A DNA stretch of 26,639 nt from positions 1-26,639 of the forward strand of contig QHOD01000001.1 of the NCBI GenBank assembly GCA_003218615.1, written 5' to 3'. Of this stretch, positions 4,034-24,670 are shown in pieces. Positions within the stretch are counted from its first letter, which is position 1. Each line of letters begins with the position of its first letter. Under the pieces are notes generated by a model. It worked only from the letters and a program-made list of their open reading frames with translations. It had not been told where the DNA came from and ran no database searches. The stretch comes from Verrucomicrobiota bacterium. GTDB lineage: Bacteria; Verrucomicrobiota; Verrucomicrobiia; Chthoniobacterales; UBA10450. Both the position numbers and the translations under genes were made by a program.

Positions 4034-4110
4034 CGCGGGGTGGAGCAGCCTGGTAGCTCGTCAGGCTCATAACCTGAAGGCCGCGGGTTCAAATCCCGCC
4101 CCCGCAACCA
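4034..4110 (+). tRNA. tRNA-fMet (initiator, anticodon CAT)
   Basis: CGCGGGGTGGAGCAGCCTGGTAGCTCGTCAGGCTCATAACCTGAAGGCCGCGGGTTCAAATCCCGCCCCCGCAACCA. Shows C1-A72 mismatch, A11-U24, CAT at 4068-4070, GTTCAAATC T-loop and encoded CCA. Confidence 0.97.
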
Positions 4111-4197
4111 ATTTTATCCGCTGGACCCCCATATCATCAATTGCCCCGCGAAAGGGTCTGTGCAAAGTTCAGCCCGCTCAATCGAGGAAAAAATTAA

Positions 4198-4235
4198 TCC
4201 ACCGCAGCTCAGTGGTAGAGCGGTCGGCTGTTAAC
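4198..4235 (+). repeat. Truncated 5' half of tRNA-Asn; direct repeat of 24011-24048 (att-like site)
   Basis: TCCACCGCAGCTCAGTGGTAGAGCGGTCGGCTGTTAAC is 36/38 identical to 24011-24048, with a 30-nt perfect match (4206-4235 = 24019-24048). Similarity stops one base after the anticodon loop; no T-arm or acceptor 3' strand follows. Confidence 0.92.
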
Positions 4236-4536
4236 GCTTTTCCTGCGTTTTTAAGGTGCGCGAGAGAGCCGAAGAGAAACGGTTTTACCTAGCGTAGAGC
4301 GCGTCAGAGCGTTTGGCAGTAAAAAGAGCGCGAGCGATAGGCCGGTGAAACGCCGGAGGGGTCCTGCTCAAAAAATTCCGAAAAAGGGAGTAGCCAGCCC
4401 CGGCGTCCGGCCAGCCAATGAAAACAATTCTACGGGGCGCCTGCACGCGAATTTTGTGGATCTCGCAAAAAATCTAACCGAGAGAAAAGGTCTACGGGCG
4501 CGCAAGAATCAAGGCTCCTTAACGCCGGCAAGTGCG

Positions 4537-4748
4537 TTCGAAAACCGGAGCGAAGAAAAAGCCAACGCCTACTTTGCCGTCGGAATCCAGGACGAAATTC
4601 TGACGCGCTTATCCAAGATCGCCGACTTGAAGGCCATCCCGCGCACATCCACCCAGCATTACAAAACCGCGCCGGAAAACCTGCCTAGATCGCCAGGCAA
4701 CTTGGCGTCGCGCACATCCTGGAAGGCAGCGTGCAGAAGAGCGGCGAC
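4537..4748 (+). pseudogene. Frameshifted fragment of a TolB-like domain found in adenylate cyclase/kinase-TPR proteins
   Basis: FENRSEEKANAYFAVGIQDEILTRLSKIADLKAIPRTSTQHYKTAPENLP, then a 1-nt deletion near 4687, continuing in another frame as IARQLGVAHILEGSVQKSGD. Neither the N- nor the C-terminal part of the parent gene is present. Confidence 0.8.
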
Positions 4749-4913
4749 GATCGGGCCGCGTTTCAGCGACGCGAGCCTCGTTGACTGCCGCTTGGCTAAT
4801 CACGGCGCGAGGGCCAGGAACGCTGGAAGGGGGATCAGCGTTGACAGGCTTTTCGCGGCCAAGATTGTGACCAGCGGCGAATCCCAAGGATACCCGGCTC
4901 ACTATTTACATTC

Positions 4914-5720
4914 GTGAATCCGAATCATCTTCTTCGCACTTTCAGGTTGCTTTGTGCGGTGCTTTGCGTCTGCGGCCTGGCGGCGCGAGCAGAAGGCGAA
5001 TCTTCGAGGATCTACCGCGGCCCAGGCGAAAACGCTGAAGCCTTGATGGCAAAAGGCGACGAATTCGATAAACGACTCCAAGCCAAAGAGGCACTCGAAG
5101 ACTATCTGCCGGCGAACAAGCTCGAACCGAACAATGTGGACCTTCTGGTTCGTATCGCGAGGCAGTACCGCCATTTGATGAGCGACACGACGTCGAAGAA
5201 AGAAAAGCTGCGGCTTGGAAATATCTCGCTTGAGTTCGCCAGTCGAGCCGCGACCCTCGCGCCCAATAATGCCGAAGCCCAACTCTCGCCCGCGATCAGC
5301 CTCGGTAAAATGCTGCCTTTCATGGGCAGCAAGGATCAGTTCAATGCTTCGCCGCGCATTAAGGCGGCGGTGGACCGCGCTATTCACCTTGATCCGGCCA
5401 ACGACAACGCGTGGCACATTCTCGGCCGTTGGAATCGCGTGCTTGCAAATGTTAGCGCGGTGAAACGGGTGATGGCGAAGGCTCTTTATGGCGACCTGCC
5501 GGTCACGAGCAACGAAGCGGCGGAGAAATGTCTCTTAAAAGCCATCGAAATTAACCCGAACCGGCTCATGCATTATATCGAACTAGGCCGCATCTATGCG
5601 GCGATGGGACGCAAAGACGAGGCGCGCAAGTTCATTAAAAAGGGGCTTGCTATGCCGAACAAAGAAAAAGATGACCCGGAGATGAGAGAGATCGGACAGC
5701 AGACGTTACAAAAGCTGTGA
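4914..5720 (+). CDS. Secreted TPR-like helical repeat protein, RMD1-3 (RMDN)-like
   Basis: GTG start and signal peptide (LLCAVLCVCGLAARA). Repeated A..L.P.N TPR-type motifs (AATLAPNN, AIHLDPAND, AIEINPN). Confidence 0.8.
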   Translation: MNPNHLLRTFRLLCAVLCVCGLAARAEGESSRIYRGPGENAEALMAKGDEFDKRLQAKEALEDYLPANKLEPNNVDLLVRIARQYRHLMSDTTSKKEKLRLGNISLEFASRAATLAPNNAEAQLSPAISLGKMLPFMGSKDQFNASPRIKAAVDRAIHLDPANDNAWHILGRWNRVLANVSAVKRVMAKALYGDLPVTSNEAAEKCLLKAIEINPNRLMHYIELGRIYAAMGRKDEARKFIKKGLAMPNKEKDDPEMREIGQQTLQKL

Positions 5721-5741
5721 TAATGGGTCAATGCGAGGGCG

Positions 5742-7727
5742 CTACGCCGTTTGCAAACATGCTTCGTAGCCGGACCACTCAGGCATATCTGCCAGACCGC
5801 CGCCCATGAATTGATGGTGCCAGAGCTGGGTGGCTACGACCGCAGCGAGGCCCATTTCAACCGAGAGTCGGGGCAGCGATCCGGCCCGCATTTCGCGAAA
5901 ACCTTTCCGCCAGCGCGTCACTTCGTTGACATCAAAGTAACCGGTGCGGCGGAGCGAATCCTCACTTAAAAGCTGCGCCACAAACAGCGGTTCCGGGTCC
6001 ATGTGAAAACTGTCGAGTGGTGCGCGAAAGATAACTTTGCCACGTCGAGCGATCGATTTTGGAATCCAGCGTTCCGCGAGCAGGCGCAGCAGATACTTGT
6101 CGCGGAATCCACGCAGCTTCCAACGCGGGTGCAATTTCGCGGTGAAATCAAAGACCTCCTCATCCAGGAACGGGTAACGAACTTCGACCGAGGAGTGCAT
6201 GGCCACGCGGTCGCCTTTGGCCTGTAATAGATGGCCCGCCAACAGGACCCGCGCTGCGATCCAGATGCCACGATTGAGCGGGGCCCAGCGTTTGGCTTTT
6301 TCGAGAGGAAATCCCAATTCGCCCCACGGATGGCCGTCGTTCATTACTTCGCGCATCTGCTCGGAGTAGAAACGCAGCTTCGAAATCGCGAGCAGCCCAT
6401 AGGAATCGATCCAGGCATTTTGTCCGCCTACGGAAGTTTCAACGCGCTCGCGCCATTCCGGCGGGAAATGCGGCACTTTGTTCATGCGTAGATAACAGCG
6501 GCGCGCGAGATCGCTCAGATTCACTCCCGGCACGGCGTCGAGAAATCCCATGAGCTTGGCCGCTTTGTACCATGGATAACCGACCAGCCATTCGTCGGCG
6601 CCTTCGCCGGTCAGGACGACTTTCTGGCCATTGGCATGAACGCGCTGGGCAAGTTTCAGCAAAGCGCCGCAGGCCGTGTCGATCACAGGAGCTTCGGCGG
6701 CTTCAATGAGTCGCGGATAACTTTCGAGCGCTTCGAGATCGCCGTAATTCTGGACAATCGGTGGCTTGGCTCCGATGTGCCGCGCCGACAGACTCGCTGC
6801 ACTCAGCTCATCGAACTCCGGTTTATCCACCCGCACCGTGTAAGTGTTGATCGCCGGACCTTTGAGACGGCAGGCCAGCGCAAGGATCATGCTCGAATCC
6901 ACACCGCCTGACAGATACGATCCTACTGGAACATCCGCGCGCAACCGCTCTTCGACGGCCTGCAAAAGGAGCCGCTCGAATTCATCCACCAGTGCATTCG
7001 GATTGTTTCCCCACTCCTCTTCGCCCTGCGCCGGAAAATCCATTTCCCAGTAGGCGCGTTCGGTAATGACCGGACTCGTGCCCGCACTTCCGGGCGTAAT
7101 GCGCAGGCAGTGTCCCGGGGGCAGGAGTTGAACTCCTTCGAAACAAGTTCTCGGCCCCGGCACCGCGGAGAATGTAAACACGTGATCCAGTCCCCTGCGA
7201 TCAGGTCGCGGCGGAACCATTCCTGAAGCGAGCAGGCCTTTGATTTCGGAAGCAAAAAGCAGCCAGTCGCCTTGCCGGCTCCAGAAAAGTGGCGCGATCC
7301 CGAAGCGATCGCGGCCGAGATGAAGTTGTCGTTGCCGCGCGTCCCACAAGGCGATGGCGAATTGGCCGCGCAACCGTTCCCACATCCCTTCGTGATGATC
7401 TTCCCAAATGTGCGGAATGATTTCCGTATCACAATGCGTGCGGAAGTGGTGCCCTTGCCTAACAAGTTCAGCGCGGCGTTCGACGTAGTCGAACAATTCC
7501 CCGTTAAAAACCACGAAAACGCTGCGGTCTTCGTTTGTCATCGGCTGCTGCCCATCGGCGAGGTCGACAATGCTCAGGCGTCGTGAAGCGAGTGAGATCC
7601 CTGGTTGTTCGAGAAACCCTTCCTCATCCGGACCGCGGTGAGTGATCGCACGTGCCATTCGTTGCACGACGCCTTCTGGAGCCGGGCGCTGCCCAATCAA
7701 ATCAATTATTCCCGCGATCCCGCACAT
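5742..7727 (-). CDS. asnB: Asparagine synthase (glutamine-hydrolysing)-type amidotransferase
   Basis: N-terminal MCGIAG (Ntn Cys), HRGPD, RRLSIVD, QPM, FNGE, DRFGIAPL, YLSGGVDSS (PP-loop), LTGEGADE and EVRYPFLD. Confidence 0.95.
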   Translation of the reverse strand: MCGIAGIIDLIGQRPAPEGVVQRMARAITHRGPDEEGFLEQPGISLASRRLSIVDLADGQQPMTNEDRSVFVVFNGELFDYVERRAELVRQGHHFRTHCDTEIIPHIWEDHHEGMWERLRGQFAIALWDARQRQLHLGRDRFGIAPLFWSRQGDWLLFASEIKGLLASGMVPPRPDRRGLDHVFTFSAVPGPRTCFEGVQLLPPGHCLRITPGSAGTSPVITERAYWEMDFPAQGEEEWGNNPNALVDEFERLLLQAVEERLRADVPVGSYLSGGVDSSMILALACRLKGPAINTYTVRVDKPEFDELSAASLSARHIGAKPPIVQNYGDLEALESYPRLIEAAEAPVIDTACGALLKLAQRVHANGQKVVLTGEGADEWLVGYPWYKAAKLMGFLDAVPGVNLSDLARRCYLRMNKVPHFPPEWRERVETSVGGQNAWIDSYGLLAISKLRFYSEQMREVMNDGHPWGELGFPLEKAKRWAPLNRGIWIAARVLLAGHLLQAKGDRVAMHSSVEVRYPFLDEEVFDFTAKLHPRWKLRGFRDKYLLRLLAERWIPKSIARRGKVIFRAPLDSFHMDPEPLFVAQLLSEDSLRRTGYFDVNEVTRWRKGFREMRAGSLPRLSVEMGLAAVVATQLWHHQFMGGGLADMPEWSGYEACLQTA

Positions 7728-8024
7728 AATTTCGTTCGAATAGATTAACGGCCCTCACTACCTTTTCGCGGGGGCCTTTTGACAAAGATCCTTTGGAACG
7801 TAAGAAATCTCTTGGAAGGCATCTTGCTGCCAACATCGCAGAGGACGCCGAAGAGGAAAGTTGTGAAATAATTGACGGCCAACACAATTAAGCAAAGCAG
7901 CGCCAAGAAAAAATGGTAAGGGAACGTGTGTCGAGCATATTAGAAACGAATTGATGTTGGATAAGTGAATGTTTTACCGTTATTGACGTCATAAATCCGC
8001 GACCGGATTGGTAGCTGACTTGAC

Positions 8025-11000
8025 ATGGTCACAGGCAGCGCTAATCAGTCCGCCCGTGCGGAGCAACTCACCGCCATGCAAAAAGAGCGAAAAGAGCGTA
8101 TTGCGATTATTGGAGTCGGCTGCCGTTTCCCCGGTAGCGTGAGTTCGAAGGATGCTCTTTGGAAGCTTCTCATCGAAGGCCGGGAAGGCATCGTTGAAGT
8201 GCCACCCGATCGCTGGAACGTGGCGCGATACTATGATGCTGAACCGGGCGTAGGTGGCAAATCCATCGCATCGCGGGGCGGATTTATTGACGCCATCGAT
8301 CAATTTGATCCGCAGTTCTTTGGTATCTCGCCGCGGGAAGCGCCGTACGTGGATCCGCAACATCGTCTCCTCCTCGAGACCGCATGGGAGGCGATCGAAG
8401 ATGCCGGACTCGTCCTCGATTTCGAACGTGGAACCGATCTCGGAGTTTTCGTCGGCATTTCGCATAATGATTATCAGGGAATCCAAAGTTCGAGTTTTGA
8501 TCATTTCAGTATCGGACCTTATACGCCGACCGGGAGCGCGCACAGCATTGCCGCAAACCGGATTTCGTATTGCTTGAATCTGCGCGGCCCGAGTGTCGCG
8601 ATGGATACTGCGTGCTCGTCCGCGCTCACCGCAGTTCACGCGGCGTGCGAACACATCTGGGCCGGGCGTGGAGACGTTGCCTTGGCGGGAGGCGTCACAG
8701 TGATGATTTCGCCGGGCGGGTTTATCGGGTTTTCGCAGGCTGCGATGCTTTCGCCCGAAGGCCGGTGCGCCGCCTTTGATGCATCCGCCAGCGGATTTGT
8801 CCGTGGCGAAGGTGCGGGCATGGTCCTGCTCAAGCGACTTTCGCGGGCCATCGAGGATGGCGATCCGATTCAGGGCGTGATTTTGGGGACATCGATCAAT
8901 CAAGATGGACACACCAACGGCCTTTTTTTGCCCAGCCCGGAGGCGCAAACGCGACTGATGCGAGATGCCTGCAGGGATGCTGGAATCGCGCCCGAGGCGA
9001 TCGGCTTCGTCGAAGCCCACGGTACTGGGACGGCGGTGGGCGATCCGATCGAAGCGCATGCTCTCGCGGCGGCTCTCTGTGGCAATCGCCCCGCCAACGC
9101 GCCACTACCGATTGGGTCCATAAAAACCAATCTTGGCCATTTGGAAACCGCAGCGGGCATCGCGGGGCTTCTCAAAGCGATGCTGGTTCTTAAGCACGGC
9201 CAGATTCCACCCAGTCTCCATTTTTCGACGCCGAATCCTCATATTGATTTTGAAAAGCTCAAGTTACGCGTGCCCACTCGACTCGAGCCCTTCCCGAATG
9301 GGACGGCGGAGCGCATCGCAGGTGTCAACTCGTTCGGATTCGGCGGCGCGAATGCCCATGTCATCCTGGCTGAACCTCCGCCACATCAGTCGGAAAAATC
9401 TTTGGTAATTCCAAGTTTCCGTCCATGGCCAGTGATGCTTTCCGCTCGTTCGGAAGCATCGCTCCGGACTTCGGCGGCGAATCTGAGCGCATGGGTTAAG
9501 GAACACGCCAATGCCAACGGCAGCTCGCCGGTCCTGCCGGATCTCACCTATACCCTGGGAGCCCGGCGTAATCATCACTCGCACCGGCTTACTCTTGTGG
9601 CTGACAGTTGGGCGGAACTGGCCGAGGAACTCGACGCGTTTGCGAAGAAAGAAGAAAGCCAAAAGATCCGTGCGGCTTTCACAGCGCGCCGGGAACAACC
9701 GCCGCGTATTGGCTTCATCCTGAGCGGACAGGGTCCGCAATGGTGGGGAATGGGTCGCGAGTTGATGAAGCATGAGCCGGTGTTTCGCGAGGCGATTGAA
9801 AATTGTGATGCCGCGCTCCGTCCGTGGACCAGCTTCTCGCTTTTCGAAGAGCTCGGCCGCTCCGAAGAAACATCCCAGGTGCAACGGACAGAGATTGGAC
9901 AGCCGTCCATTTTTGCCATGCAAGTGGCGCTCGCGGCGCTTTGGAAATCCTGGGGCGTTCAGCCTTCAGCCGTCGTCGGCCATAGCGTGGGAGAAATTGC
10001 GGCTGCCTGCATCGCCGGAATTTTTTCTCTCGAGGAAGCAGCCCAGATCGTCGCGCTCCGAGCGCGCCTCATGGAATCCTGCGGACGCGGAGAAGGAACG
10101 ATGCTCGCTGTTGGATTGCCTGAGGAAGAAGCCTTGGCCCTCATTGCGCGGCACGACCGCACTGTAACGATTTCGGCCTTCAACGGGCCGCGTTCCATTA
10201 CGCTCTCGGGTCCGCGCGTTTCGCTCGAGGCCATGGCCGCCGAACTCGAGGCAGAGGGAGCGTTCGCGCGACTCGTTAGGGTCGATCATCCATTTCATCA
10301 TCCGCTGATGCGGCCGGCGTCAGAGGCTTTGGAGGCTGCGCTTGCCGATTTCAAACCGCAGCCGGCCGCCGTCCCATTCTTCAGCACAGTGACGGGTGAG
10401 CGTTGCGCTGGCGAGTCATGCAACGCCGCCTACTGGGCGCGCGGCATTCGCGAGCCAGTGCGTTTTGCCTCGGCCGTGCGCGCCCTGGCGGACTTCGGCG
10501 CGAATGTGTGGTTGGAACTCAATGCCCATCCCGCGCTGGCACATCCGGTCCAGGAATGCCTTTTGTCGCGCGGAGCCAAAACCACTGTGATCTCATCGGC
10601 CCGCCGCGAGCGCGAATTTGAATCCATGCTCGAGGCTGCAATGGATCTGCATCGCGCCGGCGTTCCGCTCGATTTTTCCGCGATGACGCCTTCCCGGCAT
10701 CTCCTCTCGCTGCCCGCTTACGCATGGGAAAAGACACGATGGTGGAACGAAGCAAGCGATGCTCGAGAGGGCCGCCTCGCACCGGGTGGACGCGGCCTGT
10801 TTGATGTCCGGCTGCCACGCGCGATGCCGACTTGGATCGTTCGGCTGGACTCGCGCCACATGGCTTTTCTGAAAGATCACAAAGTAGAAAACCATGTCAT
10901 TTTCCCGGCCGCGGCATTTGTTGAGATGGCGCTTGAAGCCGGTGTGCAGTTGTTCGAGGGACAACCGTTCGTGGTTGAGGATTTCGAAATCCGCAAGCCG

Positions 11001-14000
11001 CTCATCCTGCCAGATCCGCCATCGGGCATGCAGCTCGAATTCTCATACTCGCCTAACGAACGCACCTTTTCCATCCAAAGTCGTTTTGAACAAAGCGTCA
11101 CTTGGTCCCTCCACGTAGTGGGCTCGATGCGCAGTGAGCGCACGGAATCTATCTTTGCTTCCTCAAAATGGGCGAACCCTTCTGGCACTCAATCCGTCGC
11201 GGTCGACGGCTTCTACCGCCACATGAGCGATCTGGGCTTGCGTTATGGGGATGAATTTCGATCCGTTCGCGAATTATCGGCCGGTGCCGGGCGATCCGCA
11301 GGACGCGTGGTCTTGTCGGACGCGCTGTCTCCCCGCGCGGGCGAATATGCTCTGCACCCTGTTCTCTTCGACGGAGCGCTTCAAGTTTTCTCCGCTGGTG
11401 CGGCAACGGTTGAAGGTCGTCAGGCTCGGATGAAGCTGCCGGTCGGATTTCGCCGCATTCTCTTTCTCAGCTCACCGGGCCCCTCCAGTCGGGTGTGTGC
11501 AAAGGTGCGCGAGTTCGGCGATGACTTCCTTGAAGGCGACATCACTCTATATAATGAGGGAGGAAAACCTTGCGTGCTCGTGGATGGGTTTCGGGCTATC
11601 AGCCTTTCCGGAGCAGGCCGCTCCACCGGGCCCGGCGGCACACGCGATTTAACCTATCATGTCGCCTGGCAGCGGTTGCCTAACGAGTCGTCCAAGCCGG
11701 CGCTGCCGCCGCTGCCACTCGAAGAGTTAAAAGCCACGGCACAGAGTGCACTGGACCCTGTCCTTGATCTTCGCGGCCACTCCGAACTAGAGGCGGCGCT
11801 TTGCGCTCTTGACCATCTCGCGGCCGCGCAACTGGCGCGCGGATTGCAGGAAATGGGAGTGACTCCAAATACTCCCTTTGCTGCGGCGACGCTTCAGGTA
11901 GCAGCCCCGATGCGACCTGCCTTTGAGCGGCTAATGGCCGGTCTCGTTAGGCATGGCTTGCTCCGGAAAATAGAAGCGGGATTTGAACCTGTGCCTGGTT
12001 TTGCTGAAGCGGCAGATTCCGCCGGAAAAGTTCTGCGCCATTACATCGAGAAGCACCCAGGACATCTCCCCGAAGCGCTCCTTTGCGAAGGAAACTGTGC
12101 CGAGTTGGGTTCGATTTTGCGCGGCGAAAAGGATGCGGTGCAGGTCTTGTTCTCGGGGGTGGGCGCGGAGTTGCTCGATCATTTCTATGGCGACGGCCTC
12201 TTCACCAGTCACTGGCTCGCAGCCATCGCTGCGGCGGTGAGCACAGCGGGACGAAGCCTGCCCGAAGGACGCGGCCTGCGCATTCTGGAGATCGGCGCGG
12301 GGACAGGTGGATTGGCGTCGCAGGTTCTACCACTCTTGGAGCGCGGCTTGCATTCCTACACATTCAGCGATGTCTCGGCCGCATTTTTTTCCGGCGCTGC
12401 GCAGAAGCTGGCGGCGTTTTCGGAGGTGGAGTTTAAGATTTTCGATCTCGAAAAACCAGGCGTGGAGCAGGAACTCGAAGCAGGAGCATTCGACTTCATT
12501 ATCGGGACCAACGTGCTGCACGCCGTCCGCGATGTGCGTGCCGCATTGCATAATTTGCATGGCCTGCTTGCCCCTGGGGGCAGCCTCATTTTCATGGACA
12601 CGGCTACGCCACAACTTTGGATCGAGACGGTTTTCGGCCTAACGAGCGGATGGTGGCGGTTCACCGATCGCGATCTGCGCCCGGAACAACCGTTACTCAA
12701 GCGAGCCCAATGGGAAGCCGTCTTGCAGGAAACCGGTTTTACGGAAACGGCCTCGCTGCCCGGTCTGACCGGCCCAACCGGAGGCGAAGGTCAGATCGGC
12801 CTGCTGGCACGCAAGTCTTACGAGGAAACCTCGCTGCTGCCTGAGATCCACTTGCAGGTGCCCGAGGAGAAATCATGGCTCGTTTTCGCCGATGCCTCGG
12901 GAGTGGGTGAAGGGCTGGTTTCGCGACTTCGCGCACTTGGCGCCAGGTGCCGTGTCGCCACGCACGGAAACCATTTCGAGTTCGATGGCTACGACGCTTT
13001 TACCTTGCGACCGGAGGCGCTGGAAGACTGGCAACAGCTTGCCAAGAACTGTGGGGACTCCTCACCTGAGCGCATCGTCTATCTTTGGAATCTCGATGCG
13101 CCTGTCGATGGTGCCGACATGGCGACCAATCTGGACGCACTGTTGCACCTTACGCAGGCGTTCGAATCCGCGGCGCCCGCGGCAAGATTGCGCCTGGACT
13201 TGGTAACGCGGAACGCTCAGCCCGCTGGCAACCATCCTCGACCGACGGCGGTGGCGCAGGCGCCGAGCATCGGATTGATGCGCGTGATTTTGAACGAACA
13301 TTCCAATCTCTCCTGGCGCGCCATCGATCTTCCCCCGGAACCGTCCCAGGCAGATGCGGAATCGATTTGGAGCGAGCTATCTCGCAAAGACGGGGAGCGC
13401 GAGGTCGCCCTGCGGGGTGAAGCTCGCTATGTTCGACGATTGGACCGCGGTCGCCTGTCCTCCGAACAGTGGCTCGATCCGATCCTGCCGTTGCGTCTGG
13501 AATGCCGCGAACGCGGCCGCCTCGACACCCTCCGCTTCACACCGTTCGAAATGCCGCCGTGCGGCCCGGGTCAGGTGTTGATTGAAGTGAAAGCGGCCGG
13601 AATGAATTTCCGCGACGTGCTCAAGTCGCTGGCACTTTATCCAGGCGATGCTCCGGATGCGCGAATTTTTGGCGACGAAGTCAGCGGTGTCGTCAAAGCA
13701 GTTGGCTCGGACGTCACGCACCTCGCGCCAGGAGATCGTGTGTTCGGGCTCGCCGTCTTCGGAATTGCCACCCACGCGATAGCGCGCGCGGGAGACGTGA
13801 GACGGATTCCGGCACATCTGACATTTGAAGCGGCATCAACGTTACCGGTCGTTTTCATGACCGCGTGGTATGCGTTGCGAAACGTGGGGCGGCTGCGTGA
13901 GCGCGAGCGCGTTCTTGTTCACGCGGGGGCAGGTGGAGTCGGAATGGCCGCGATCCAGATCGCGCTGCATCTTGGAGCGGAAGTGGTCGCCACCGCCGGT

Positions 14001-15737: not shown

Positions 15738-15760
15738 ATGCCGGCGAGTGTGTAACCGCG

Positions 15761-17107
15761 ATGCCGGCCGATCAACGCGCTCGTCTCAAACAATGGCTCG
15801 ATCGCGGTGAAGCCCAGCTTTATCCGTTGACTTTCCCACAACGAGAACTTTGGGAAGTCTCCCCGGTGCCGGCTGAGGACAACGCGAATCACATCTGCTG
15901 TCTCATCAATGTACACGGACTCCTGACTGAGCGAGAGTGTCGCGCTGCGATCCAGCGAGTGGTCGATCGTCAGGAGGTTTTGCGTCTCTCGATCCTTCCT
16001 GGCAAAGAGCGTCCGCTCCAAATGATCCGCAAGAGTTGCGGGATCAATTTTGAATTTCGCGCAGTTGCGCCAAAAGATGCGCAACCGGAAGCGATTGAAG
16101 AATTAGCAGCAGAGATTTTCCGCGTGCCATTCGACTTCGTGCGAGGGCCGCTCTACCGCGCGGCCGACTTGCGTCGGGCGGGCAACGATCACGTGTTGGT
16201 TTTCGCGATTCATCACGCCATTGCTGACGGCTGGAGCCTGGGGGTATTAGTTCAGGACCTTTTTGCTGCTTACATCGAGGTCGTAATGGGATCGTCCGAG
16301 GCTTTGCCGCCCGTTCCACAAACCTACACGGCGTGGGGCGCAACTGAGCGCGCTTTCTGGCAACCGGCGGTTGTGGAGCAGCGCGTCGAGTTTTGGAGGG
16401 CCAAGTTAGCCGGTTCGCTTCGGATGTGGAATCTGCCGATCGCGCCGGGCCCACCCAAGCGATGGCTGTCCGCAATTCCTGCGAATCTGACTGCCGAAAC
16501 GCGCGAGCTGGCCCGTCAGACTACCGTAACATTCTTCAGCGTGCTGTTTGGGGCCTTCCAAATTGCGTTCTCCGAATGGAGCGGATTCGATAATTTGGTA
16601 GTGGGAACGCCGGTCGCCAATCGCACCAGGCAAACCGCGCGAGAAACCATGGGATATTACGCGGGTATTGTACCTCTGCGCGGGCAGATCGATCGCTCGC
16701 GGATTGCGGCCGATTATTTACGAGCGGGACATCAACAAACGATTGACTCGTTTGCCAACGCCATCCCTTTCGTCGAGTTGGTGCGCGCGCTCGGCGAGCA
16801 ATCGGAAGCGGGATATAATCCGCTTTTCGAGGTTCGCTTTGCTTTGCAGAACCATCCCATGCCGGAGGTTTCGCTGCCGAATCTTTCCGCGCGTCTGAGC
16901 ATGCGTTCGACGGGAACCGCACGTTTCCAGCTCGGATGCGAAATCACTGAAGCCGGCGACGGTCTGGAAGTCGCCTGGCTTTTTCGCGAGAATTTGTTTT
17001 CCCGACGTGACATTGAAAATCTCGATGGCATATTTCAGCGAGTTCTGGCGGGCATCTGCCGCTCGCCGGAGAACCGAATCTCTGAAGTACTGAACCGATC
17101 TCAATGA
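15761..17107 (+). CDS. Stand-alone condensation (C) domain protein / PapA-like acyltransferase
   Basis: YPLTFPQRELW, intact HHAIADG (HHxxxDG), VVGTPVANR, YNPLFEVRF. No A or PCP domain in the 448 aa. Confidence 0.92.
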   Translation: MPADQRARLKQWLDRGEAQLYPLTFPQRELWEVSPVPAEDNANHICCLINVHGLLTERECRAAIQRVVDRQEVLRLSILPGKERPLQMIRKSCGINFEFRAVAPKDAQPEAIEELAAEIFRVPFDFVRGPLYRAADLRRAGNDHVLVFAIHHAIADGWSLGVLVQDLFAAYIEVVMGSSEALPPVPQTYTAWGATERAFWQPAVVEQRVEFWRAKLAGSLRMWNLPIAPGPPKRWLSAIPANLTAETRELARQTTVTFFSVLFGAFQIAFSEWSGFDNLVVGTPVANRTRQTARETMGYYAGIVPLRGQIDRSRIAADYLRAGHQQTIDSFANAIPFVELVRALGEQSEAGYNPLFEVRFALQNHPMPEVSLPNLSARLSMRSTGTARFQLGCEITEAGDGLEVAWLFRENLFSRRDIENLDGIFQRVLAGICRSPENRISEVLNRSQ

Positions 17108-18066
17108 ACGCCGCCATCGACGAAGATTTCAGCCAGATGCATGAGCCGCACTGGGTATTGCGCGGGGCGTTTCAGCTTCTTGTTTTCGGTTTGGCTTTCG
17201 CTGAGGTGATGCTCGCTGTAACGGTGCACCGCGGATTGATCTGGCTGGCGGTGCCGCTCGTGCTTGTTGCCAGCCATTTGATGCACGGCATGCTCATCGG
17301 TCTGCACGAGGCCTCTCACGGGCTTCTCCGAAAAAGTCGCCGCCTCAATGAGTTTGATGGAGTCGTGATCGGAACGTTGAGTCTGATGAGCTTCAGTCTC
17401 TATCGCGTCGTTCATCAAACGCATCATGCGTATCTCGCGACGGAGCGAGATCACGAATTTTGGCCACTCTCTCAAACGACCGTGCCACGGTGGAAGAGAT
17501 GTCTGGCCGCATTTTTCGAGCTGAATCTCGGATTGGTTTATACTCCGTTTGTTTTCCTGCGAGCCTTCTTTTGTTCTCCTTCGCCGGTCCGAAACAAGCG
17601 TGTGCGCCGCCGCATTTGGGCGGAATTGGCGCTGACAGTTGTGACCTGGACGTTTATTCTTTGGGTGATCGCAACATTCGGCCTGTGGAAATATTTCATC
17701 TGGATGTATCTCGCGCCGGCAGTCCTGGCGGCTAATTTGCAGAGTTGGCGCAAATACATCGAGCACGTTGGAATGACGGGCGACACGGTAAATAGCACAA
17801 CTCGGAGCATCGTCGCGAAAAGCTGGCTGGGGCGGCTGGTTGCTTTCACGCTGCTTCACGAACCGTTTCATGGAGTTCATCATCAACGGGCCGGTCTGCC
17901 TCATTCCGTTTTGCCGCAACACGTTGAAAAATTGCAGCCAAAAAAACCTGGCGAACGAGCCCCGTACACAAGTTATCGTTACGCCTTGATTGAACTGGTG
18001 CGCTCCCTTGCCGATCCGCGCTTCGGGCCGCAATCGCGAACGCTTGAGTCAGTCGCCGGCAAATAA
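17104..18066 (+). CDS. Membrane fatty acid desaturase/hydroxylase-family protein
   Basis: Three His boxes HEASH, HQTHH and HGVHH with hydrophobic segments. ATGA overlap with the C-domain stop. Confidence 0.92.
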   Translation: MNAAIDEDFSQMHEPHWVLRGAFQLLVFGLAFAEVMLAVTVHRGLIWLAVPLVLVASHLMHGMLIGLHEASHGLLRKSRRLNEFDGVVIGTLSLMSFSLYRVVHQTHHAYLATERDHEFWPLSQTTVPRWKRCLAAFFELNLGLVYTPFVFLRAFFCSPSPVRNKRVRRRIWAELALTVVTWTFILWVIATFGLWKYFIWMYLAPAVLAANLQSWRKYIEHVGMTGDTVNSTTRSIVAKSWLGRLVAFTLLHEPFHGVHHQRAGLPHSVLPQHVEKLQPKKPGERAPYTSYRYALIELVRSLADPRFGPQSRTLESVAGK

Positions 18067-18115
18067 AATGTTTTTTTGGGGGCCATGTCTGCTCTCGGCT
18101 GCGAATCCCCATTAT

Positions 18116-18661
18116 ATGAAGATAAACATCACCAAAATTGGCGTGGCTTTGCTCGCCGTTGGAATTTGTATCTGGTCGACAGAGGTGCGCGCGCAGGCGA
18201 CCACGACCGTGACCACGACGAAGGGCGCATTCACAGAGTATGTTCCCGGCTCGGAAACGATGGTTGTGAGAACTGAAACGAGTTCGGCCCCGTTGCGTTA
18301 CGTGGTAAGCAAACAGACGACGATTGTTGATGAATCCGGTGCGCCGGTCGCGATCGAGCGCATTTCACCGGGTAGTCCGCTCTCGATCCAGTATACAGGT
18401 ACCGGCGAACATCTCGTAGCGTCACGCATCGTTGTGCAAAGGCCGGCCGCAGTAACCACCGAACCCGTGACAACCGCGCCCGTAGCGGCCCAGCAGGACA
18501 CGACCACGTCCACGACCACGACACGCGCTCTGAGCCATGAGGAAAAACATGCTCTAAAAGAGCAACGAGAGCATCGTAAGAAGGCAACGAAGGAAGAGAT
18601 CGAAAAGCAGAAGGATGCCTTGGACAAGGCCAAGGATAAAATCGACGACGGCAACGATTGA
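18116..18661 (+). CDS. Secreted hypothetical protein (beta-rich domain, Thr-rich linker, charged helical tail)
   Basis: Signal peptide MKINITKIGVALLAVGICIWSTEVRA from ATG at 18116; the 17990 start overlaps the desaturase. Confidence 0.8.
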   Translation: MKINITKIGVALLAVGICIWSTEVRAQATTTVTTTKGAFTEYVPGSETMVVRTETSSAPLRYVVSKQTTIVDESGAPVAIERISPGSPLSIQYTGTGEHLVASRIVVQRPAAVTTEPVTTAPVAAQQDTTTSTTTTRALSHEEKHALKEQREHRKKATKEEIEKQKDALDKAKDKIDDGND

Positions 18662-18723
18662 ACGAAGTTCGTTCGCTGTTCAGAGTGCTGGCAGATTCTC
18701 GGGAGAGCTGACAGCTTAAGCAG

Positions 18724-19413
18724 GTGACGCCGCCTTCTGCCAGCGCCCTCCTCGAGGCCAAAGCTCTGACCCGCGAGTTCGACGAAGGGCACGTCAAGGC
18801 CCTGCGCGGAGTCGATTTTTCCATCAAGGAGGGCGACTTCGTTGCCATTGTTGGACCGAGCGGATGCGGTAAATCGACCTTGCTGCAATTACTAGGTGCG
18901 TTGGATCGACCGACATCCGGAACCCTTTTCTACCGCGGAATATCGCTGCCGGATCATCCCAATCCCGCAGCATACCGTGCTCGCGAGGTCGGGTTTATTT
19001 TCCAGGCGTTTCACCTCCTGCCGACTTTCACCGCGGCCGAGAACGTGCAAATCCCAATGTTCGAGACGGATCGCTCGGCTTCTGAGCGACGCGAGCGCGC
19101 CTTCGAATTGCTAAAACTGGTTGGCCTGGAACATCGCCTCGATCATTTTCCATCCAAACTTTCCGGTGGCGAGCGACAGCGTGTCGCCATCGCGCGCAGT
19201 CTTGCTAATGAGCCGTCGCTGCTACTCGCGGATGAACCGACCGGTAATCTTGACAGTGAAAACGCTCATTCGGTTTTCGACCTCATTATTAGTCTGCAAC
19301 AAGAGCAGGGTCGCACCATGGTGCTTGTCACTCACGATCCAACTATTGCCGGGCGAGCGGGAAGGACCCTTCGCATGATGGACGGTCGAATCGTCTCGGA
19401 CGATAAACGATGA
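18724..19413 (+). CDS. ABC transporter ATP-binding protein (LolD/MacB-like)
   Basis: Walker [10 protein letters not shown], signature [13 protein letters not shown], Walker [17 protein letters not shown]. Confidence 0.95.
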
Positions 19414-20528
19414 CCTTTTTTACTGTTGTCATCCGCGGTCTCTGGCGTCGGCCCTTGCGGACGGGATTGACTCTCGCGGGAATTTCCATCGGCATTGCTG
19501 CCGTCGTGGCGTTGGTCGGGATGTCTCGAGGTTTTGAGAAAGGCTGGCAGGTTGGATTGAAGGCGCGCGGAACCGATATCGTCGTCTCTAACAGAGGGGG
19601 ATCGCTCACGCCGAAGCCGTTCGACGCCTCCGTCCGCGATCGGATCGCCGGCCTTCCGCACATCGCCGCGACCTGCAACCTTCTCGTGGAGGTGACCAGT
19701 GTTGAAGAGTCTGATCTGATGATTCTCTCCGCTCGCGAGTGGGGAGGATTTGCATGGAACAATCTGGAACTCGTCTCCGGGCGTATGCCGCGCGATGCCA
19801 CGGAAGAGGCAGCGGTTTTGGGTCAGACTGCGGCAGAAGTGCTCAAGAAAAAAATTGGCGACCCGATTCAGATTGAAACGAAGAAACTAACCGTCGTCGG
19901 AATCGTGAAGGGGGGCGCTCTCGTCGAAGACGGTTCGGTCATTCTTTCTTTACCGCTCTTACAAGGAATCATCGGCGCTCCCAACCAGATCAACGCAATC
20001 GATATTGGAGTGACGCCTTCGACTACCGAGCAACAAATCAAGGAACTTACTCGACAGATCGAACAACTGGTCCCGGAAGTTCGCGCCGTGACCGTGAGCG
20101 AACACCTCAGCCACAATGAGGGATTTCGGCTCGTTAAGGCCATGAGTTGGGGCACGTCTCTCCTCGCCATCCTTGTGGGTGTGCTTGGTGTGATGAACAC
20201 CATGCTCATGACCGTTTTCGAGCGTACCCATGAAATCTGTGTGCTGCTCGCCGTTGGTTGGACGCGCGGGCGAATCATGAGAATGATTCTTTACGAATCC
20301 GCGCTGCTTGGACTTTTCGGCGGTGTTATTGGCGTAGCTATTGGTGCCATCGGAGTCCAGGTGCTGAGCGCAACGCCGGCGATTAAAGGGTTATTGCAGC
20401 CTGACCTCAGCATTGCGCTCCTTGGCCTTTCTGTCGTCATCGCCATTGCGGTCGGAATTATCAGCGGTCTCTATCCCGCGTGGAGGAGTTCGCGGCTAAA
20501 TCCAAGCCAGGCTTTGCAAGCCGGATGA
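19410..20528 (+). CDS. ABC transporter permease (FtsX/MacB/LolE-like)
   Basis: RRPLRTGLTLAGISIGIAAVV, periplasmic domain, GVMNTMLMTVFERTHEI..L.A.GW, GLYPAWR...L.P..AL. ATGA overlap with the ATPase. Confidence 0.93.
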   Translation: MTFFTVVIRGLWRRPLRTGLTLAGISIGIAAVVALVGMSRGFEKGWQVGLKARGTDIVVSNRGGSLTPKPFDASVRDRIAGLPHIAATCNLLVEVTSVEESDLMILSAREWGGFAWNNLELVSGRMPRDATEEAAVLGQTAAEVLKKKIGDPIQIETKKLTVVGIVKGGALVEDGSVILSLPLLQGIIGAPNQINAIDIGVTPSTTEQQIKELTRQIEQLVPEVRAVTVSEHLSHNEGFRLVKAMSWGTSLLAILVGVLGVMNTMLMTVFERTHEICVLLAVGWTRGRIMRMILYESALLGLFGGVIGVAIGAIGVQVLSATPAIKGLLQPDLSIALLGLSVVIAIAVGIISGLYPAWRSSRLNPSQALQAG

Positions 20529-21361
20529 GAACCGCGCAAACCAATCGCTCAATGCGAATCCATCCTGGGAAGATATCTTTAGCCGTGAAACCTTTCTTAC
20601 CTCTCGCCATCGCCGCTGCGGCATTCTGCCTTATCTCCATTCGGGGCGCTGAACCCGCACCGCCCGCAATGTCGGCCGCAGAACTTGCTGATCAGCTGGA
20701 CGTTGTCAGCCAAGGGAGCGCCTTAATCCGCACCAAGCTTGAGGTCCGATCGCTCGCGGGCGCCAAGCGCGTCCTGCAACTTCAGATCAAGCAACGCCGG
20801 ACGAAGACGACAAGCGATCTTGCTTATCAAGTGCTTTGGCCCGATGAGCATAAGGGCGAAGCCGTTATCTTGCACCAAGCCCATGGTGTGGCGAAAGGCT
20901 CAATCATCGTTCCGCAGCAGCCAGTTCGCGCGATCAAGGCCTCGCAAATGAACGAGGGATTGTTCGACAGTGATCTCTCCTATCAGGACGCGGTGGAGAA
21001 TTTCTTTGCCTGGAAAAAGCAGGCCCTCGTCGGTTCGGAGACAATCAACGGAGTGAATTGCCAGATTCTCGAATCCAAGCCGGACAGCTCCTCCGTTTCC
21101 ATCTATGCCAAAGTGCGCAGCTGGATTGATCCTCAGCGTTTCGTGCCGATGCGGATCGAGAAATATTCATCCTCAGGCGAACTCGTCCGCCGCATTGATG
21201 TCACTCGAGTCGCGCGTGATGAAAAGCACCATCCGATTCCAGCCAGTCTCACCGTGCATGGGCCGCGGAAAAACAGTGTGACGGAATTCAATGGCGCGCG
21301 CATCGACCAGGACGTGCAGTTCACCGACGCCGATTTCACAGCTGCGGGCGTTTTGAAGTAG
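20525..21361 (+). CDS. Outer-membrane lipoprotein-sorting (LolA-like) periplasmic protein
   Basis: Signal-like segment PFLPLAIAAAAFCLISIRG, then LFDSDLSYQD, ETINGVNCQILESKP, YAKVRSWID and PMRIEKY, typical of the LolA_like family. ATGA overlap with the permease; exact start uncertain. Confidence 0.8.
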   Translation: MRTAQTNRSMRIHPGKISLAVKPFLPLAIAAAAFCLISIRGAEPAPPAMSAAELADQLDVVSQGSALIRTKLEVRSLAGAKRVLQLQIKQRRTKTTSDLAYQVLWPDEHKGEAVILHQAHGVAKGSIIVPQQPVRAIKASQMNEGLFDSDLSYQDAVENFFAWKKQALVGSETINGVNCQILESKPDSSSVSIYAKVRSWIDPQRFVPMRIEKYSSSGELVRRIDVTRVARDEKHHPIPASLTVHGPRKNSVTEFNGARIDQDVQFTDADFTAAGVLK

Positions 21362-21369
21362 CCGCACGG

Positions 21370-22659
21370 TTACCTGTTCACAGCGCTCTCAACCAGCCGG
21401 CCCGCATTGAGCAGGTCCGCCTCGGCGAGTCGCGGGCCGATCAATTGCAGGCTCGTAAAGGAAACCTTCGCGCCGGACAGGGGCACGGGGACCGCCAGCG
21501 CCGGGTTGCCCGCAAAATTGACCGCCACCGTGTTTTGCACCCGAAGCACGTACGCGTCAAGGATCCCTATTCTCAAATTGAGCAGCGGAAGTCCCGGTGG
21601 TGTTTTTTGAAGGGTTGGCAAAGCGATGAGGTCCACCTTCTCGAAAACATTGCGCAGCGTCTGCTGCCACGCGCTCCGCCTGGCCAAGGCGCTGCGGTAA
21701 CCCGTAGTGTAGTTTATCTGGCCCAGTCGAATTACAGCCTTGGTTCGAGCCGACACGCCTAGTGCGAATTGCAATCGTTCGTCACTAATCCATGTACCCG
21801 CTGAAGCAACGGTAGTGCCGTCCTTCTTCGCTTGCTCAAATTTGTCGCTCAGGCTCTCGTCCAACTCGACGACTTGGAATCCTGCTTTGGCAAGCGCATC
21901 GTCAATCGCCTGATCGATTTTTGGATCAGTACCCTTCAGCTTGAGGCGTCCGACCCGGATGCTTCGCCCAGTTGGCTTTGCCGCCTTGGCCGCCGCATAC
22001 TTGGCTGCAAAACCATCTTGAAGAAGCTCCATCCCTTGAACGGTGTGAGCGATGTCTTTCCCCATCGGGCCCACGGTGTCGAGATGCTTAGGCTCAACCG
22101 GATAAACACCTTCGATCGGAATCAAGCCGTACGTCGTCTTCAAGCCGACGACACCACAACAAGCGGCAGGCACACGAATTGAGCCGGCCGTGTCCGTCCC
22201 AAACGCCACGTCCGCCATTCCGCTCGCCAATGCGACCGCGTTTCCAGACGAGGATCCGCCCGGAATCAGATTTCGCTTCAACGGATTCACGGGCGTCCCG
22301 AAATATTCATTCAAGCCGGACGGTGAGATCGCGAATTCGGTCATGTTTGTTTTGCCGACTATCTGCAAGTTACGCTGCCGCGCGATCGCCAGACACGGGG
22401 CATCCTTTTCCGCGGGCTTGTGGGTTTCGGAAAAGATCCCCGAACCGGCGGTCGTAACTACGCCCTTCATATCAATGTTATCCTTAATCGCGAGCCGCAG
22501 TTCTTTGCGATTCGGATCCGGCGGCCAGTAGTCGATGAAGGCGCGGTTGCCGGGTAGATTCTTGTTGAAGGGCGGCAAAATTGAGCATCCGCCGCATAGG
22601 ACGAGCGACGCCAGCACAATCGGCAACCATTTAAAGCCAATGCGGCCGCATTGTTTCAT
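21370..22659 (-). CDS. Amidase-signature family amidase, predicted lipoprotein
   Basis: AIKDNI (Lys), VGKTNMTEFA, PGGSSSG and GTDTAGSIRVPAACCGVVGLKTT (Ser-cisSer). From ATG at 22659 the N-terminus MKQCGRIGFKWLPIVLASLVLCGGC ends in a lipobox-like Cys. Confidence 0.9.
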   Translation of the reverse strand: MKQCGRIGFKWLPIVLASLVLCGGCSILPPFNKNLPGNRAFIDYWPPDPNRKELRLAIKDNIDMKGVVTTAGSGIFSETHKPAEKDAPCLAIARQRNLQIVGKTNMTEFAISPSGLNEYFGTPVNPLKRNLIPGGSSSGNAVALASGMADVAFGTDTAGSIRVPAACCGVVGLKTTYGLIPIEGVYPVEPKHLDTVGPMGKDIAHTVQGMELLQDGFAAKYAAAKAAKPTGRSIRVGRLKLKGTDPKIDQAIDDALAKAGFQVVELDESLSDKFEQAKKDGTTVASAGTWISDERLQFALGVSARTKAVIRLGQINYTTGYRSALARRSAWQQTLRNVFEKVDLIALPTLQKTPPGLPLLNLRIGILDAYVLRVQNTVAVNFAGNPALAVPVPLSGAKVSFTSLQLIGPRLAEADLLNAGRLVESAVNR

Positions 22660-22828
22660 GCGCGCAACGCTGGATGTCTGCGCGCTTTTTGCAACCGCGA
22701 TTGCCAAAAAAGCATGCTCCCGGGGCGGGGTGGACAGTCGCTGAGCGCAATGAGGTTGCCCGGCGCGGATCCTTAACAAGTGAGGCGTTCGCCAAAATGG
22801 GACGACAGGCGAGATCTTTGACGCAGCG

Positions 22829-23704
22829 TTATCTTTTATAAGCGGACGCGGTTCTGACGGGATCATATGGCACCCGGCCATTTCGTGTGGGCGCATAGAC
22901 AAAGCCGTAACGGTCCCTTTTTACATCCACCGGCTCAAGAAGTAAGCCTTTGTTACCCGCCTTCTCAGTGTATTCGATCAGTACTCTGGCCGTTCCATTG
23001 AAGCCCCACATTTTAAATCCCGTCCCGAAAAGTCCGCCGTTGGGGTAAAGCTCGTCCAAACCGGCCATGGCATGAAAACAACTGATAGCGACTTTGTCAT
23101 TTCGATAAAGACGATCATCGGCGCGATACTTAATGGTTCCTCCGTCGAGCAGGCGTTTGCGTTCCACTCCGAGATCAAACCCAATTTTGTTGATCTCATA
23201 AGGTCCCCACATGGCCACCGCATTCTTTTCATCCACGGCAAGCTTGATCGTTTCTGCGAGCGTAAAGTTTCGGCCGGTCGATACGGGACAGTTATTCCGC
23301 TCTGGAATAATGCGGCTGCCCACGCCGTCAAAGACGCACAGATGGGGATTGCTCAGGAAATCGTGAGGCAGCCAGCTAATGTTAAACGCTTCAAATTCCC
23401 GATTCCTATATCTTCGTAGTTTGAGACCCGGCGTCAGCTTGGGCTGCTTATGATCGGCAAAAACTCGAATGACAGAGACAAACGAGTGCGAAAATTCCGG
23501 GTGGTTCCCGCGATCTTGGTAAGCAAAAGGAATGATGAAATACCGCTCGCGCGTGTTACTGCCCTCACCAAGGCGGGCCGAGACTTTGGCTTTGATACGA
23601 TCTACGATCTGCGTGTAGAGGGGCACATCATAGTTCGAAAAATCCACATCTGCCTGCGCGACGATGGGCAAAGTAAAAAGTAAGATGAAGGTTCTGAAAA
23701 ACAT
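22829..23704 (-). CDS. Secreted hypothetical protein
   Basis: 291-aa ORF with signal peptide MFFRTFILLFTLPIVAQA and protein-like composition. No family recognised with certainty. Confidence 0.8.
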   Translation of the reverse strand: MFFRTFILLFTLPIVAQADVDFSNYDVPLYTQIVDRIKAKVSARLGEGSNTRERYFIIPFAYQDRGNHPEFSHSFVSVIRVFADHKQPKLTPGLKLRRYRNREFEAFNISWLPHDFLSNPHLCVFDGVGSRIIPERNNCPVSTGRNFTLAETIKLAVDEKNAVAMWGPYEINKIGFDLGVERKRLLDGGTIKYRADDRLYRNDKVAISCFHAMAGLDELYPNGGLFGTGFKMWGFNGTARVLIEYTEKAGNKGLLLEPVDVKRDRYGFVYAPTRNGRVPYDPVRTASAYKR

Positions 23705-24010
23705 ATCGACAAATTACAACGAAACGACTCCGATTGGAAGTCCCGTAGCGGGATGGCTGCGCCCCTGATGATACAACTCCGAGCGAAGCGCAACCACTGG
23801 ATCGACATTTAGTCCGTGATACCTCTACAGGAAGTCTCCCGGTAGAGGCATTCGCCAACCCGAATGAAACCTGTTTCTTTTTTCTTTTTGACCTCATAAT
23901 AATCTCTCGCGATCTTTTGCGATCTCTCGAAACGGCTATCGCCGGTGAAAAGACGGGTGGAAGCAGAAATCGTAAATTATTTTCTCCAGTGCGTTTTCAG
24001 AGGTAAACGA

Positions 24011-24085
24011 TCCAGCGTAGCTCAGTGGTAGAGCGGTCGGCTGTTAACCGATTGGTCGTAGGTTCGAATCCTACCGCTGGAGCCA
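24011..24085 (+). tRNA. tRNA-Asn (anticodon GTT)
   Basis: TCCAGCG/CGCTGGA acceptor stem, AGCTCAGTGGTAGAGC D-arm, GTCGG-CTGTTAA-CCGAT anticodon arm, GGTTCGAATCC T-loop, encoded CCA. Confidence 0.97.
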
Positions 24086-24144
24086 TTTTAACCGACCGAG
24101 TCTATATCCTAAAAACAAGTCGCCGCTTCCAGGTCGGCTAAGCG

Positions 24145-24167
24145 AATGACTCGCAAACCGAGTCGTT
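24145..24167 (+). terminator. Stem-loop downstream of tRNA-Asn, possible terminator
   Basis: AATGACTCG-CAAAC-CGAGTCGTT, 9-bp stem with one G-U pair; U-tract is weak. Confidence 0.3.
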
Positions 24168-24303
24168 AATCACAATCGAACTGACAAAATTAAGCCGTCC
24201 AACACACGCGCAAGAAAACGGTCCGTGAGCAACTGAGCTCACACTCGGCAACCGACAATCGGATAAACGCACGCGAGGTGCCAGCAACGATACTTTTAAT
24301 ACC

Positions 24304-24489: not shown

Positions 24490-24670
24490 TCCGAGGCACC
24501 TTAGGACTATTGTAGAGAGCGTTAATGGCAGGGGGCGCAGATTTTGCGCACCGACACTCCACGTACATCGCAATCCGATCCTGCCCCTTGGAGTTCGAAC
24601 TTCTGTGGATGAATTCGTCGTTTCTTACGACTGTTGCTAAACGCATGAGCGATTAGAGGGCACAGTTTTC

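Follow-up and report, generated by a model that had tools for sequence, protein, structure and literature searches.

Positions 4198 to 24085 of contig QHOD01000001.1 (GenBank assembly GCA_003218615.1; 26,639 nt, hereafter the window, by which we mean the whole stretch of DNA analyzed) are most probably an integrated genomic island of the tyrosine-integrase type that is now immobilized. The island carries a polyketide-lipid gene cluster of a Candidatus Udaeobacter species and lies between a displaced 5' fragment of tRNA-Asn and the intact tRNA-Asn gene (the 5'-fragment configuration); we put the probability of this reading at about 0.8. Bacteria of this genus rank among the most abundant in soil and have small genomes. 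The genus is not known to have been cultured, and its gene gain and loss are poorly known.

The window is an entire contig of a metagenome-assembled genome (MAG; 351 contigs, 2.29 Mb, 85% complete). A tRNA-Asn query was searched in 108 Udaeobacter genomes, and public genomes and metagenomes were scanned for the junction pattern. In what follows, G numbers denote genomes, C numbers their contigs, and L numbers other contigs and loci compared. Coordinates of all features are collected in Table 1.

The repeat and the two tRNA genes

ARAGORN found 45 tRNAs in the assembly, of which one is tRNA-Asn, and an Rfam search of the window returned nothing besides tRNA-Met and tRNA-Asn. The former is presumably an initiator, having C1 opposite A72 like E. 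coli tRNA-fMet. The repeat described in an earlier note on this DNA was confirmed by ARAGORN, Rfam, and alignment: 87 nt past tRNA-Met (4111-4197) stands a copy of tRNA-Asn positions 1-38 that agrees at 36 of 38 bases (mismatches G5>C and U8>C), with 30 nt in an unbroken run (4206-4235 = 24019-24048). The intact gene, which is also the only intact tRNA-Asn of the genome, lies 19.8 kb downstream in the same orientation (19,813 nt from start to start; 19,775 nt between the repeats). The copy begins at tRNA position 1, and identity ends one base beyond the 7-nt anticodon loop (...CTGTTAA C / G, the slash marking the boundary). A search of the whole assembly for further copies of the 38-mer returned this fragment as the sole extra tRNA-Asn copy (E value, 8.6e-11), so that it is neither a chance match nor a dispersed repeat. 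An intron-interrupted or split tRNA gene was considered and rejected; the only 3' half downstream is part of a complete gene, which has a 5' half too.

Both substitutions in the fragment are private to this species, and one hits the nearly invariant U8. Because sister islands (see below) retain the fragment unmutated, C5 and C8 are best read, on sequence comparison, as decay of a dead relic in this species; of the two origins first allowed for them, great age or another allele, the latter is not favored.

Empty sites in relatives

The usual gene order in the genus is PFK, S11 carboxypeptidase, DUF72, and the tRNA-Met/tRNA-Asn pair, usually followed by the conserved gene o547, which adjoins the pair in G022, G014, G006, G011, and others. 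Relatives supply both the empty site and the ancestral tRNA-fMet/tRNA-Asn pair that had been postulated. In G013 and G018, tRNA-Asn follows tRNA-Met by about 64 nt next to the DUF72 gene; the two are likewise adjacent beside DUF72 in G101; and G022, the closest relative without an island there, carries DUF72, Met, Asn, and o547 in succession, the 20 kb being absent. The spacer at 4111-4197 aligns with the Met-Asn spacer of G013 (GCAAAGTTCAGCCCGC versus GCAAAATTCAGGCCC) and is related to GGCAAGATATACGC, a promoter-like block that precedes both the fragments and the empty-site tRNA-Asn genes. The DNA before the intact tRNA-Asn (23836-24010) is not homologous to the native spacer and is without the native upstream block. 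Since the native spacer stands before the fragment and not before the intact gene, the fragment holds the original site of the gene's 5' half.

The Met/Asn pair varies between species in order and orientation, and 3' fragments of tRNA-Met (positions 49/53-77) were seen near the intact gene in several relatives (L037, L031, L033, L090, L091, and L097); classical islands thus target tRNA-Met as well, and this is a hot spot of rearrangement.

A recurrent breakpoint and complete sister islands

Extra copies of exactly tRNA-Asn positions 1-38 occur in G086, G089, G058, G083, and G002, and of positions 1-41 in G091, each with the native upstream block before it and unrelated DNA from the same base after it. 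Together with G124 and G125, at least eight other genomes have the 1-38 breakpoint, and about 46 further contigs of Udaeobacter type came from the pattern scan, their junction sequences falling into at least six types. Two of these islands are complete, each on one long contig with the fragment upstream: that of G124 (C7, 60058-76176), with the intact gene 16.0 kb away, carries a CLC channel, a PHO4 transporter, and FG-GAP and PATR proteins, and that of G125 (C7, 260968-278681), with the intact gene 17.6 kb away, carries an AAA_25 ATPase and genes without known family. In G124, an intact 368-amino-acid (aa) tyrosine recombinase (PF00589; E value, 6.6e-12) is encoded at L126:4225-5331, divergently and 91 nt upstream of the rebuilt tRNA. 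G125 (frameshifted) and G058 have homologues in the corresponding position, and one more stands at the beginning of the island-bearing contig of G089. In 33 contigs, the junction is followed at 85-147 nt by the motif AGTATCA, often in tandem with 13-nt spacing; in G124 and G125, the motif precedes the tRNA by 64-79 nt. Arm-type binding sites would be expected to show such a pattern. The recurrent breakpoint, the complete islands, their integrases, and AGTATCA together show that a family of 5'-type tRNA-Asn islands exists. The complete islands, which come from Udaeobacter and related Verrucomicrobiae, resemble the window in target, in the breakpoint after position 38, and in the orientation of fragment and gene; they differ in having an integrase, tandem AGTATCA on both arms, and unrelated cargo. 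The identical breakpoint in complete islands with a tyrosine integrase beside the rebuilt tRNA supports the proposal of the earlier note that integration took place at the anticodon loop.

Two kinds of match were set aside. An integrase beside a tRNA-Asn on G058:C75 goes with a different tRNA-Asn sequence, probably of another organism in the bin. Most public-contig matches to the junction pattern were intact tRNA-Asn genes of the plant-organelle (chloroplast) type with T at position 39.

Arm and cluster in other species

The left arm of the window's island (type A) is 90-91% identical in L228 and L246 and about 80% identical in L153, L197, and L231, always directly after position 38 and in all five after an unmutated fragment; L243 also has an unmutated fragment, and its arm start looks different. 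In L228, L243, and L246, TPR and AsnB genes of the window's kind follow the arm, and o547 borders the fragment in opposite orientation, an arrangement like that of the G022-type backbone. Identity to the window in these contigs is 94-98% for AsnB (measured in L228 and L243) and 82-96% for the TPR protein, and only about 70% for o547. Cargo proteins are 92-98% identical in two of the at least three other organisms with arm and cluster and 82-94% identical in the third. Since AsnB and TPR lie so far above o547, arm and cluster moved between species, and these sequence comparisons indicate that they entered the same tRNA-Asn base at least twice. The same cluster is present in G012 at 87-94% DNA identity, where an N-terminal integrase remnant fused to a PPK2 fragment lies right beside the TPR gene. 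Orthologous clusters were found in about 12 of 100 genomes of the genus.

Soundness of the assembly

Such a locus might also arise as an assembly chimera, a metagenome assembler having joined two contigs through a tRNA sequence common to co-occurring Udaeobacter species. The MAG is in 351 contigs, the tRNA-Asn is 100% identical across more than 50 species of the genus, and a contig of G083 terminates exactly at tRNA-Asn position 38, all of which would make such an error easy. Both junctions were nonetheless seen again, at 98-99.9% identity, in assemblies made independently from several samples. Across the left junction, three metagenome contigs (L223, of 14.5 kb, L147, and L207) keep the order DUF72 gene, tRNA-Met, fragment, and cluster at 99.6-99.9% identity, and a Logan contig from another run matches 4206-4566 without mismatch; across the right junction (o291, a 306-nt spacer, tRNA-Asn, and the beginning of o547), eight contigs of NCBI, ENA, and JGI samples are collinear with the window at 98.3-99.4%. 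A chimera would also not account for the private substitutions of the fragment, including that at U8, nor for equal geometry on long contigs of 263 and 393 kb. It is effectively refuted, and the join is a real structure, not an assembly artifact. At the contig end in G083 (C65; L090 9936-9973), the assembly graph may branch at position 38, and cells with an island could then coexist in that sample with cells lacking one.

Proposed origin

In the proposed course of events, a circular element whose attP was a copy of tRNA-Asn positions 1-38, preceded by the element's own upstream DNA, would have crossed over with the chromosomal tRNA-Asn gene at or within its anticodon loop, the exact point of exchange probably lying inside the loop. 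The host promoter and 5' half would have been left behind as a dead fragment (attL, 4198-4235), which later acquired its two substitutions, and the island's 5' half would have joined the host's 3' half to form a functional gene (attR, 24011-24085), with the right arm presumably supplying the promoter. The cargo is a conserved Udaeobacter lipid cluster (TPR, AsnB-type, PKS, C domain, desaturase, MacB/LolA-type export, amidase, and o291). The island would once have had its own integrase, since lost by deletion, or would have been moved in trans by that of a sister island. As both integrase and AGTATCA are absent from it, the island is best filed as a degenerate member of the 5'-type tRNA-Asn family.

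Several observations weigh against this reading. The note's remark that no integrase is visible held up: PF00589 had no match in the window, tblastn with the sister-island integrase had none, and neither a recognizable remnant nor an excisionase was found there. AGTATCA, the motif of the main island family, is absent from the window's arms, which share a 10-mer and inverted copies of CGAGAGA; motifs common to these two arms are only modestly above chance. Junk, in the form of a cyclase-family gene fragment (4535-4755), separates the left arm from the cargo. Outside this species, no single contig was found to hold both ends of a type A island. Logan contigs (k = 31), which break at the 30-nt repeat, gave no circular form, no excision product, and no joint across the island, and so are uninformative either way. 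The slightly atypical composition of the island (GC content, 57.3% versus 55.2%; tetranucleotide distance, 0.113 versus 0.076 +/- 0.009, from only 11 comparison windows) counts in favor of the reading, yet it may be no more than an effect of the large PKS gene. Finally, in other species the cluster lies at at least four loci without a tRNA, so it can also move by other routes.

The last point bears on a two-step origin, in which fragment and arms are the scar of an older 5'-type island that lost its own cargo and integrase by deletion and that the lipid cluster entered later by ordinary recombination or another route; the 19.8 kb would then not be a single element. In G069, G050, G063, and G079, the cluster stands between HhH-GPD/MBL genes and an LPG-synthase-like gene; in the window's own genome this locus, on contig C9, carries no cluster, which counts toward the single-island reading. 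Further tRNA-less loci are beside an asparaginase gene (G101), cytochrome bd genes, and a Pyr_redox_2 gene. The o291 homologues P0002, P0011, P0032, P0035, and P0044 yielded only cluster copies at tRNA-less loci and no right end with an integrase. Two steps would also fit the cyclase-family fragment between arm and cluster, the differences in the region from arm to TPR gene among G000, L228, L246, and G012, and the end of homology with the cluster copies of G101 and L258 at 23745-23835, short of the right arm. Against this, at least four organisms with two different backbones have arm and cluster in collinear order immediately behind the fragment, and where measured these are far more similar between species (AsnB, 94-98%) than the flanking core gene (70%), which fits transfer as one unit. 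We therefore regard a two-step origin as unlikely, though not negligible.

Less probable still is an event without an integrase, in which a double-strand break in the anticodon region of tRNA-Asn, made for example by the neighboring GIY-YIG nuclease, was repaired with local duplication and capture of foreign DNA. A GIY-YIG gene and a pseudo-tRNA-Asn (positions 34-75) do follow tRNA-Asn in about 15 genomes of the genus, a remnant of that gene persists in the window at 24134-24227, and the locus is heavily rearranged between species. Break repair would not, however, start the repeat at tRNA position 1 every time, and the GIY-YIG-linked duplication has a different boundary (position 34). It also sits poorly with a breakpoint identical to the base in dozens of independent contigs, with conserved motifs at fixed offsets, and with the tyrosine integrase beside the rebuilt tRNA in complete islands. 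Integration by a tyrosine integrase remains our preferred explanation of the window.

The GIY-YIG arrangement was recorded as an observation in its own right. Many Udaeobacter genomes have a 97-aa GIY-YIG gene between tRNA-Asn and the pseudo-tRNA-Asn (L039:2004-2297 in G007; L035, about 1500-1700, in G018), and the pseudo-tRNA-Asn is built of positions 7-23, a 17-nt hairpin (TCCCGAcacagTCGGGA), and then positions 34-75. It looks like a small cassette that duplicated the 3' part of the tRNA. The decayed copy in the window matches over 20 aa by tblastn (E value, 0.006); the intact open reading frame (ORF) belongs to PF01541 (E value, 4.8e-16).

Arms, composition, and integrase searches

A query of 4236-4540 (left arm) gave only short matches of 27-29 nt in the 108 Udaeobacter genomes, and relatives of the left arm were found in metagenome contigs only. 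For the right arm (query 23740-24010), a single 27-nt match and no credible homologue were found across the genus. A sigma-70 scan before the intact tRNA-Asn found no consensus match, although for Verrucomicrobia such a scan is not informative. In L153, an ORF that follows the type A-like arm resembled an excisionase by eye and was dropped, as it had no Pfam match.

GC content is nearly flat across the window, as expected of transfer within a genus. The shift in composition that the earlier note had thought worth computing was therefore almost lacking in GC along the sequence, while the island as a whole is slightly atypical in both GC and tetranucleotides. PF00589 had three matches in the window's own genome, all on other contigs; across the genus, its matches were mainly XerC/XerD-like genes, with no link to tRNA-Asn.

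Features of the window

Table 1. Features annotated in the window (positions counted from its first base)
Feature	Positions	Strand	Basis and remarks
tRNA-Met(CAU)	4034-4110	+	ARAGORN, Rfam; native left neighbor of tRNA-Asn, pair adjacent in relatives
Native Met-Asn spacer with promoter-like block	4111-4197	+	Alignment to G013 spacer
Displaced tRNA-Asn 5' fragment (positions 1-38, 36/38), putative attL	4198-4235	+	
Left arm, type A	4236-4534	+	299 nt; motifs CGAGAGA and GTTTTACCTAGCG conserved in diverged copies
Pseudogene fragment of the adenylate-cyclase/transmembrane/TolB-N-like/TPR paralogous family	4535-4755	+	215 nt (about 70 codons)
Secreted TPR protein (signal peptide), first cargo gene	4914-5720	+	Pfam RMD1-3/TPR; orthologues in every cluster copy
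AsnB-type glutamine amidotransferase	5742-7727	-	Pfam; NCBIfam TIGR01536 above cut-off
Single-module highly reducing type I polyketide synthase (PKS; KS-AT-DH-MT-ER-KR-ACP)	8025-15737	+	Pfam domain order
Free-standing condensation-domain (C-domain) protein	15761-17107	+	PF00668, E value 1.6e-63; weak PapA5-like match below cut-off
Membrane fatty-acid desaturase family protein	17104-18066	+	PF00487
o223, conserved, no family	17990-18661	+	Orthologues in cluster copies, position differs in G069 and G079
ABC ATPase	18724-19413	+	Pfam
MacB/FtsX permease	19410-20528	+	Pfam
LolA-like protein	20480-21361	+	Pfam
Amidase-signature enzyme	21370-22902	-	PF01425
o291, conserved, no family, last cargo gene	22829-23704	-	Homologues in cluster copies
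Conserved noncoding block upstream of o291	23745-23835	.	Homology to G101 cluster copy ends here
Right arm	23836-24010	+	175 nt; tandem GCGATCT/TCTCTCG repeats
Intact tRNA-Asn(GUU), putative attR	24011-24085	+	ARAGORN, Rfam
GIY-YIG gene remnant, decayed	24134-24227	+	Native DNA outside island; 72.6% DNA identity to G007 ORF
o547, conserved core gene	24726-26369	+	Native right neighbor of tRNA-Asn

The cyclase/TolB-N/TPR family to which the pseudogene fragment belongs is represented in the window's own genome by about 10 full-length paralogues, at 69-88% DNA identity, and has many members in G101 and G012; the fragment is missing from the sister island L228. As 4535-4755 is a pseudogene piece, the 190-aa ORF at 4345-4917 is spurious. 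Searches with o223 gave no Pfam or NCBIfam match. For o291, 1754 homologues were found at 80-91% identity, and where examined all were within cluster copies. Upstream of o291, 60 nt (23776-23835) are 98% identical to G101, against 83% in the surrounding DNA, and 23745-23776 matches as an inverted copy beside this block, which may be a regulatory element of the cluster.

The cluster was seen in at least five chromosomal contexts (L248, L249, L259, L258, L053, and L058-L061) and in two gene orders, with o291-amidase-o223 either beside the TPR gene or at the far end as in the window. In cargo, it is like the mycobacterial Mas/PapA5-type lipid pathways in that its fully reducing, single-module PKS is followed by a free-standing condensation-type enzyme and by genes for lipid export. 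It differs from them in that the C-domain protein scores 22 bits against PapA5 (cut-off, 396), the PKS carries an in-line methyltransferase, and the predicted export is of the MacB/LolA type, whereas that of Mas/PapA5 is MmpL.

Outside the island, about 200 nt upstream of o547 (24255-24500) are conserved at 72-82% DNA identity in many species of the genus and may be a leader or a small gene.

Comparison with known islands and significance

Classical islands and prophages, such as those with P4-like and HP1-like integrases, displace a 3' fragment of the tRNA gene. The window's island shares with them site-specific recombination at a tRNA sublocation and restoration of the gene by the attP copy. 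An element of the window's type restores the 5' half instead and must bring upstream (promoter) DNA as well, and the integrase of 5'-type islands lies on the 5' side of the rebuilt gene. Both kinds flank one tRNA-Asn in G124, where the gene that ends the 5'-type island also begins a classical island on its 3' side (C7, 40530-60132; L126). A second integrase (L126:2797-3933) and a Prim-Pol gene belong to this classical island, whose 3' fragment (positions 49-74) lies about 19.5 kb downstream.

In Islander, an island is defined as a tRNA gene (tDNA) plus a displaced end fragment (Hudson, Lau and Williams 2015, PMC4383910). By that scheme, the window has a full tDNA and a cognate fragment on one replicon and the same (+) strand; the fragment is an end and not an internal one, a 5' fragment lying upstream of the tDNA; the interval (19,775 nt) falls within 2-200 kb; and the sublocation is a recognized one (anticodon loop, Islander "A"). 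A tyrosine integrase is lacking from the interval and is present in G124, G125, G058, and G089, and Islander's integrase filter would reject the window's island. Like the 5'-fragment islands of that collection, it has tRNA and fragment in direct orientation and an identity block that ends at the anticodon loop; it differs from them in its host, an uncultured verrucomicrobium, and in its polyketide-lipid cargo. Of 3919 islands in Islander, 3760 have a 3' fragment and 159 a 5' fragment (PMC4383910), which agrees with the earlier statement that most tRNA islands leave a 3' fragment and that here the 5' fragment was left. The "reversed att geometry" of the earlier note is accordingly real as a layout and not unprecedented, belonging to a known minority class (159/3919). 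The 5'-fragment layout is known but uncommon overall and frequent in Udaeobacter. New here are the genus of the host, the lipid cluster as cargo, and the extent of the 5'-type family at tRNA-Asn.

Island finders that require an integrase or expect 3' fragments would overlook islands of this kind. The defined att site and the intact G124 integrase could become a DNA insertion tool for Verrucomicrobia. The locus is a precisely bounded case of a biosynthetic cluster borne by a site-specific island, and there is evidence that it passed from species to species. It is also a recombination hot spot, where one tRNA-Asn gene is the target of 5'-type islands, of classical 3'-type islands, and of a small GIY-YIG cassette. 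More tentatively, and with doubt outweighing confidence, we suggest that Udaeobacter and its relatives may harbor a large island family whose members insert into the single tRNA-Asn from its 5' side and replace its promoter, so that expression of an essential tRNA would depend on island DNA, and that members without an integrase may spread by the recombinase of a sibling acting in trans.

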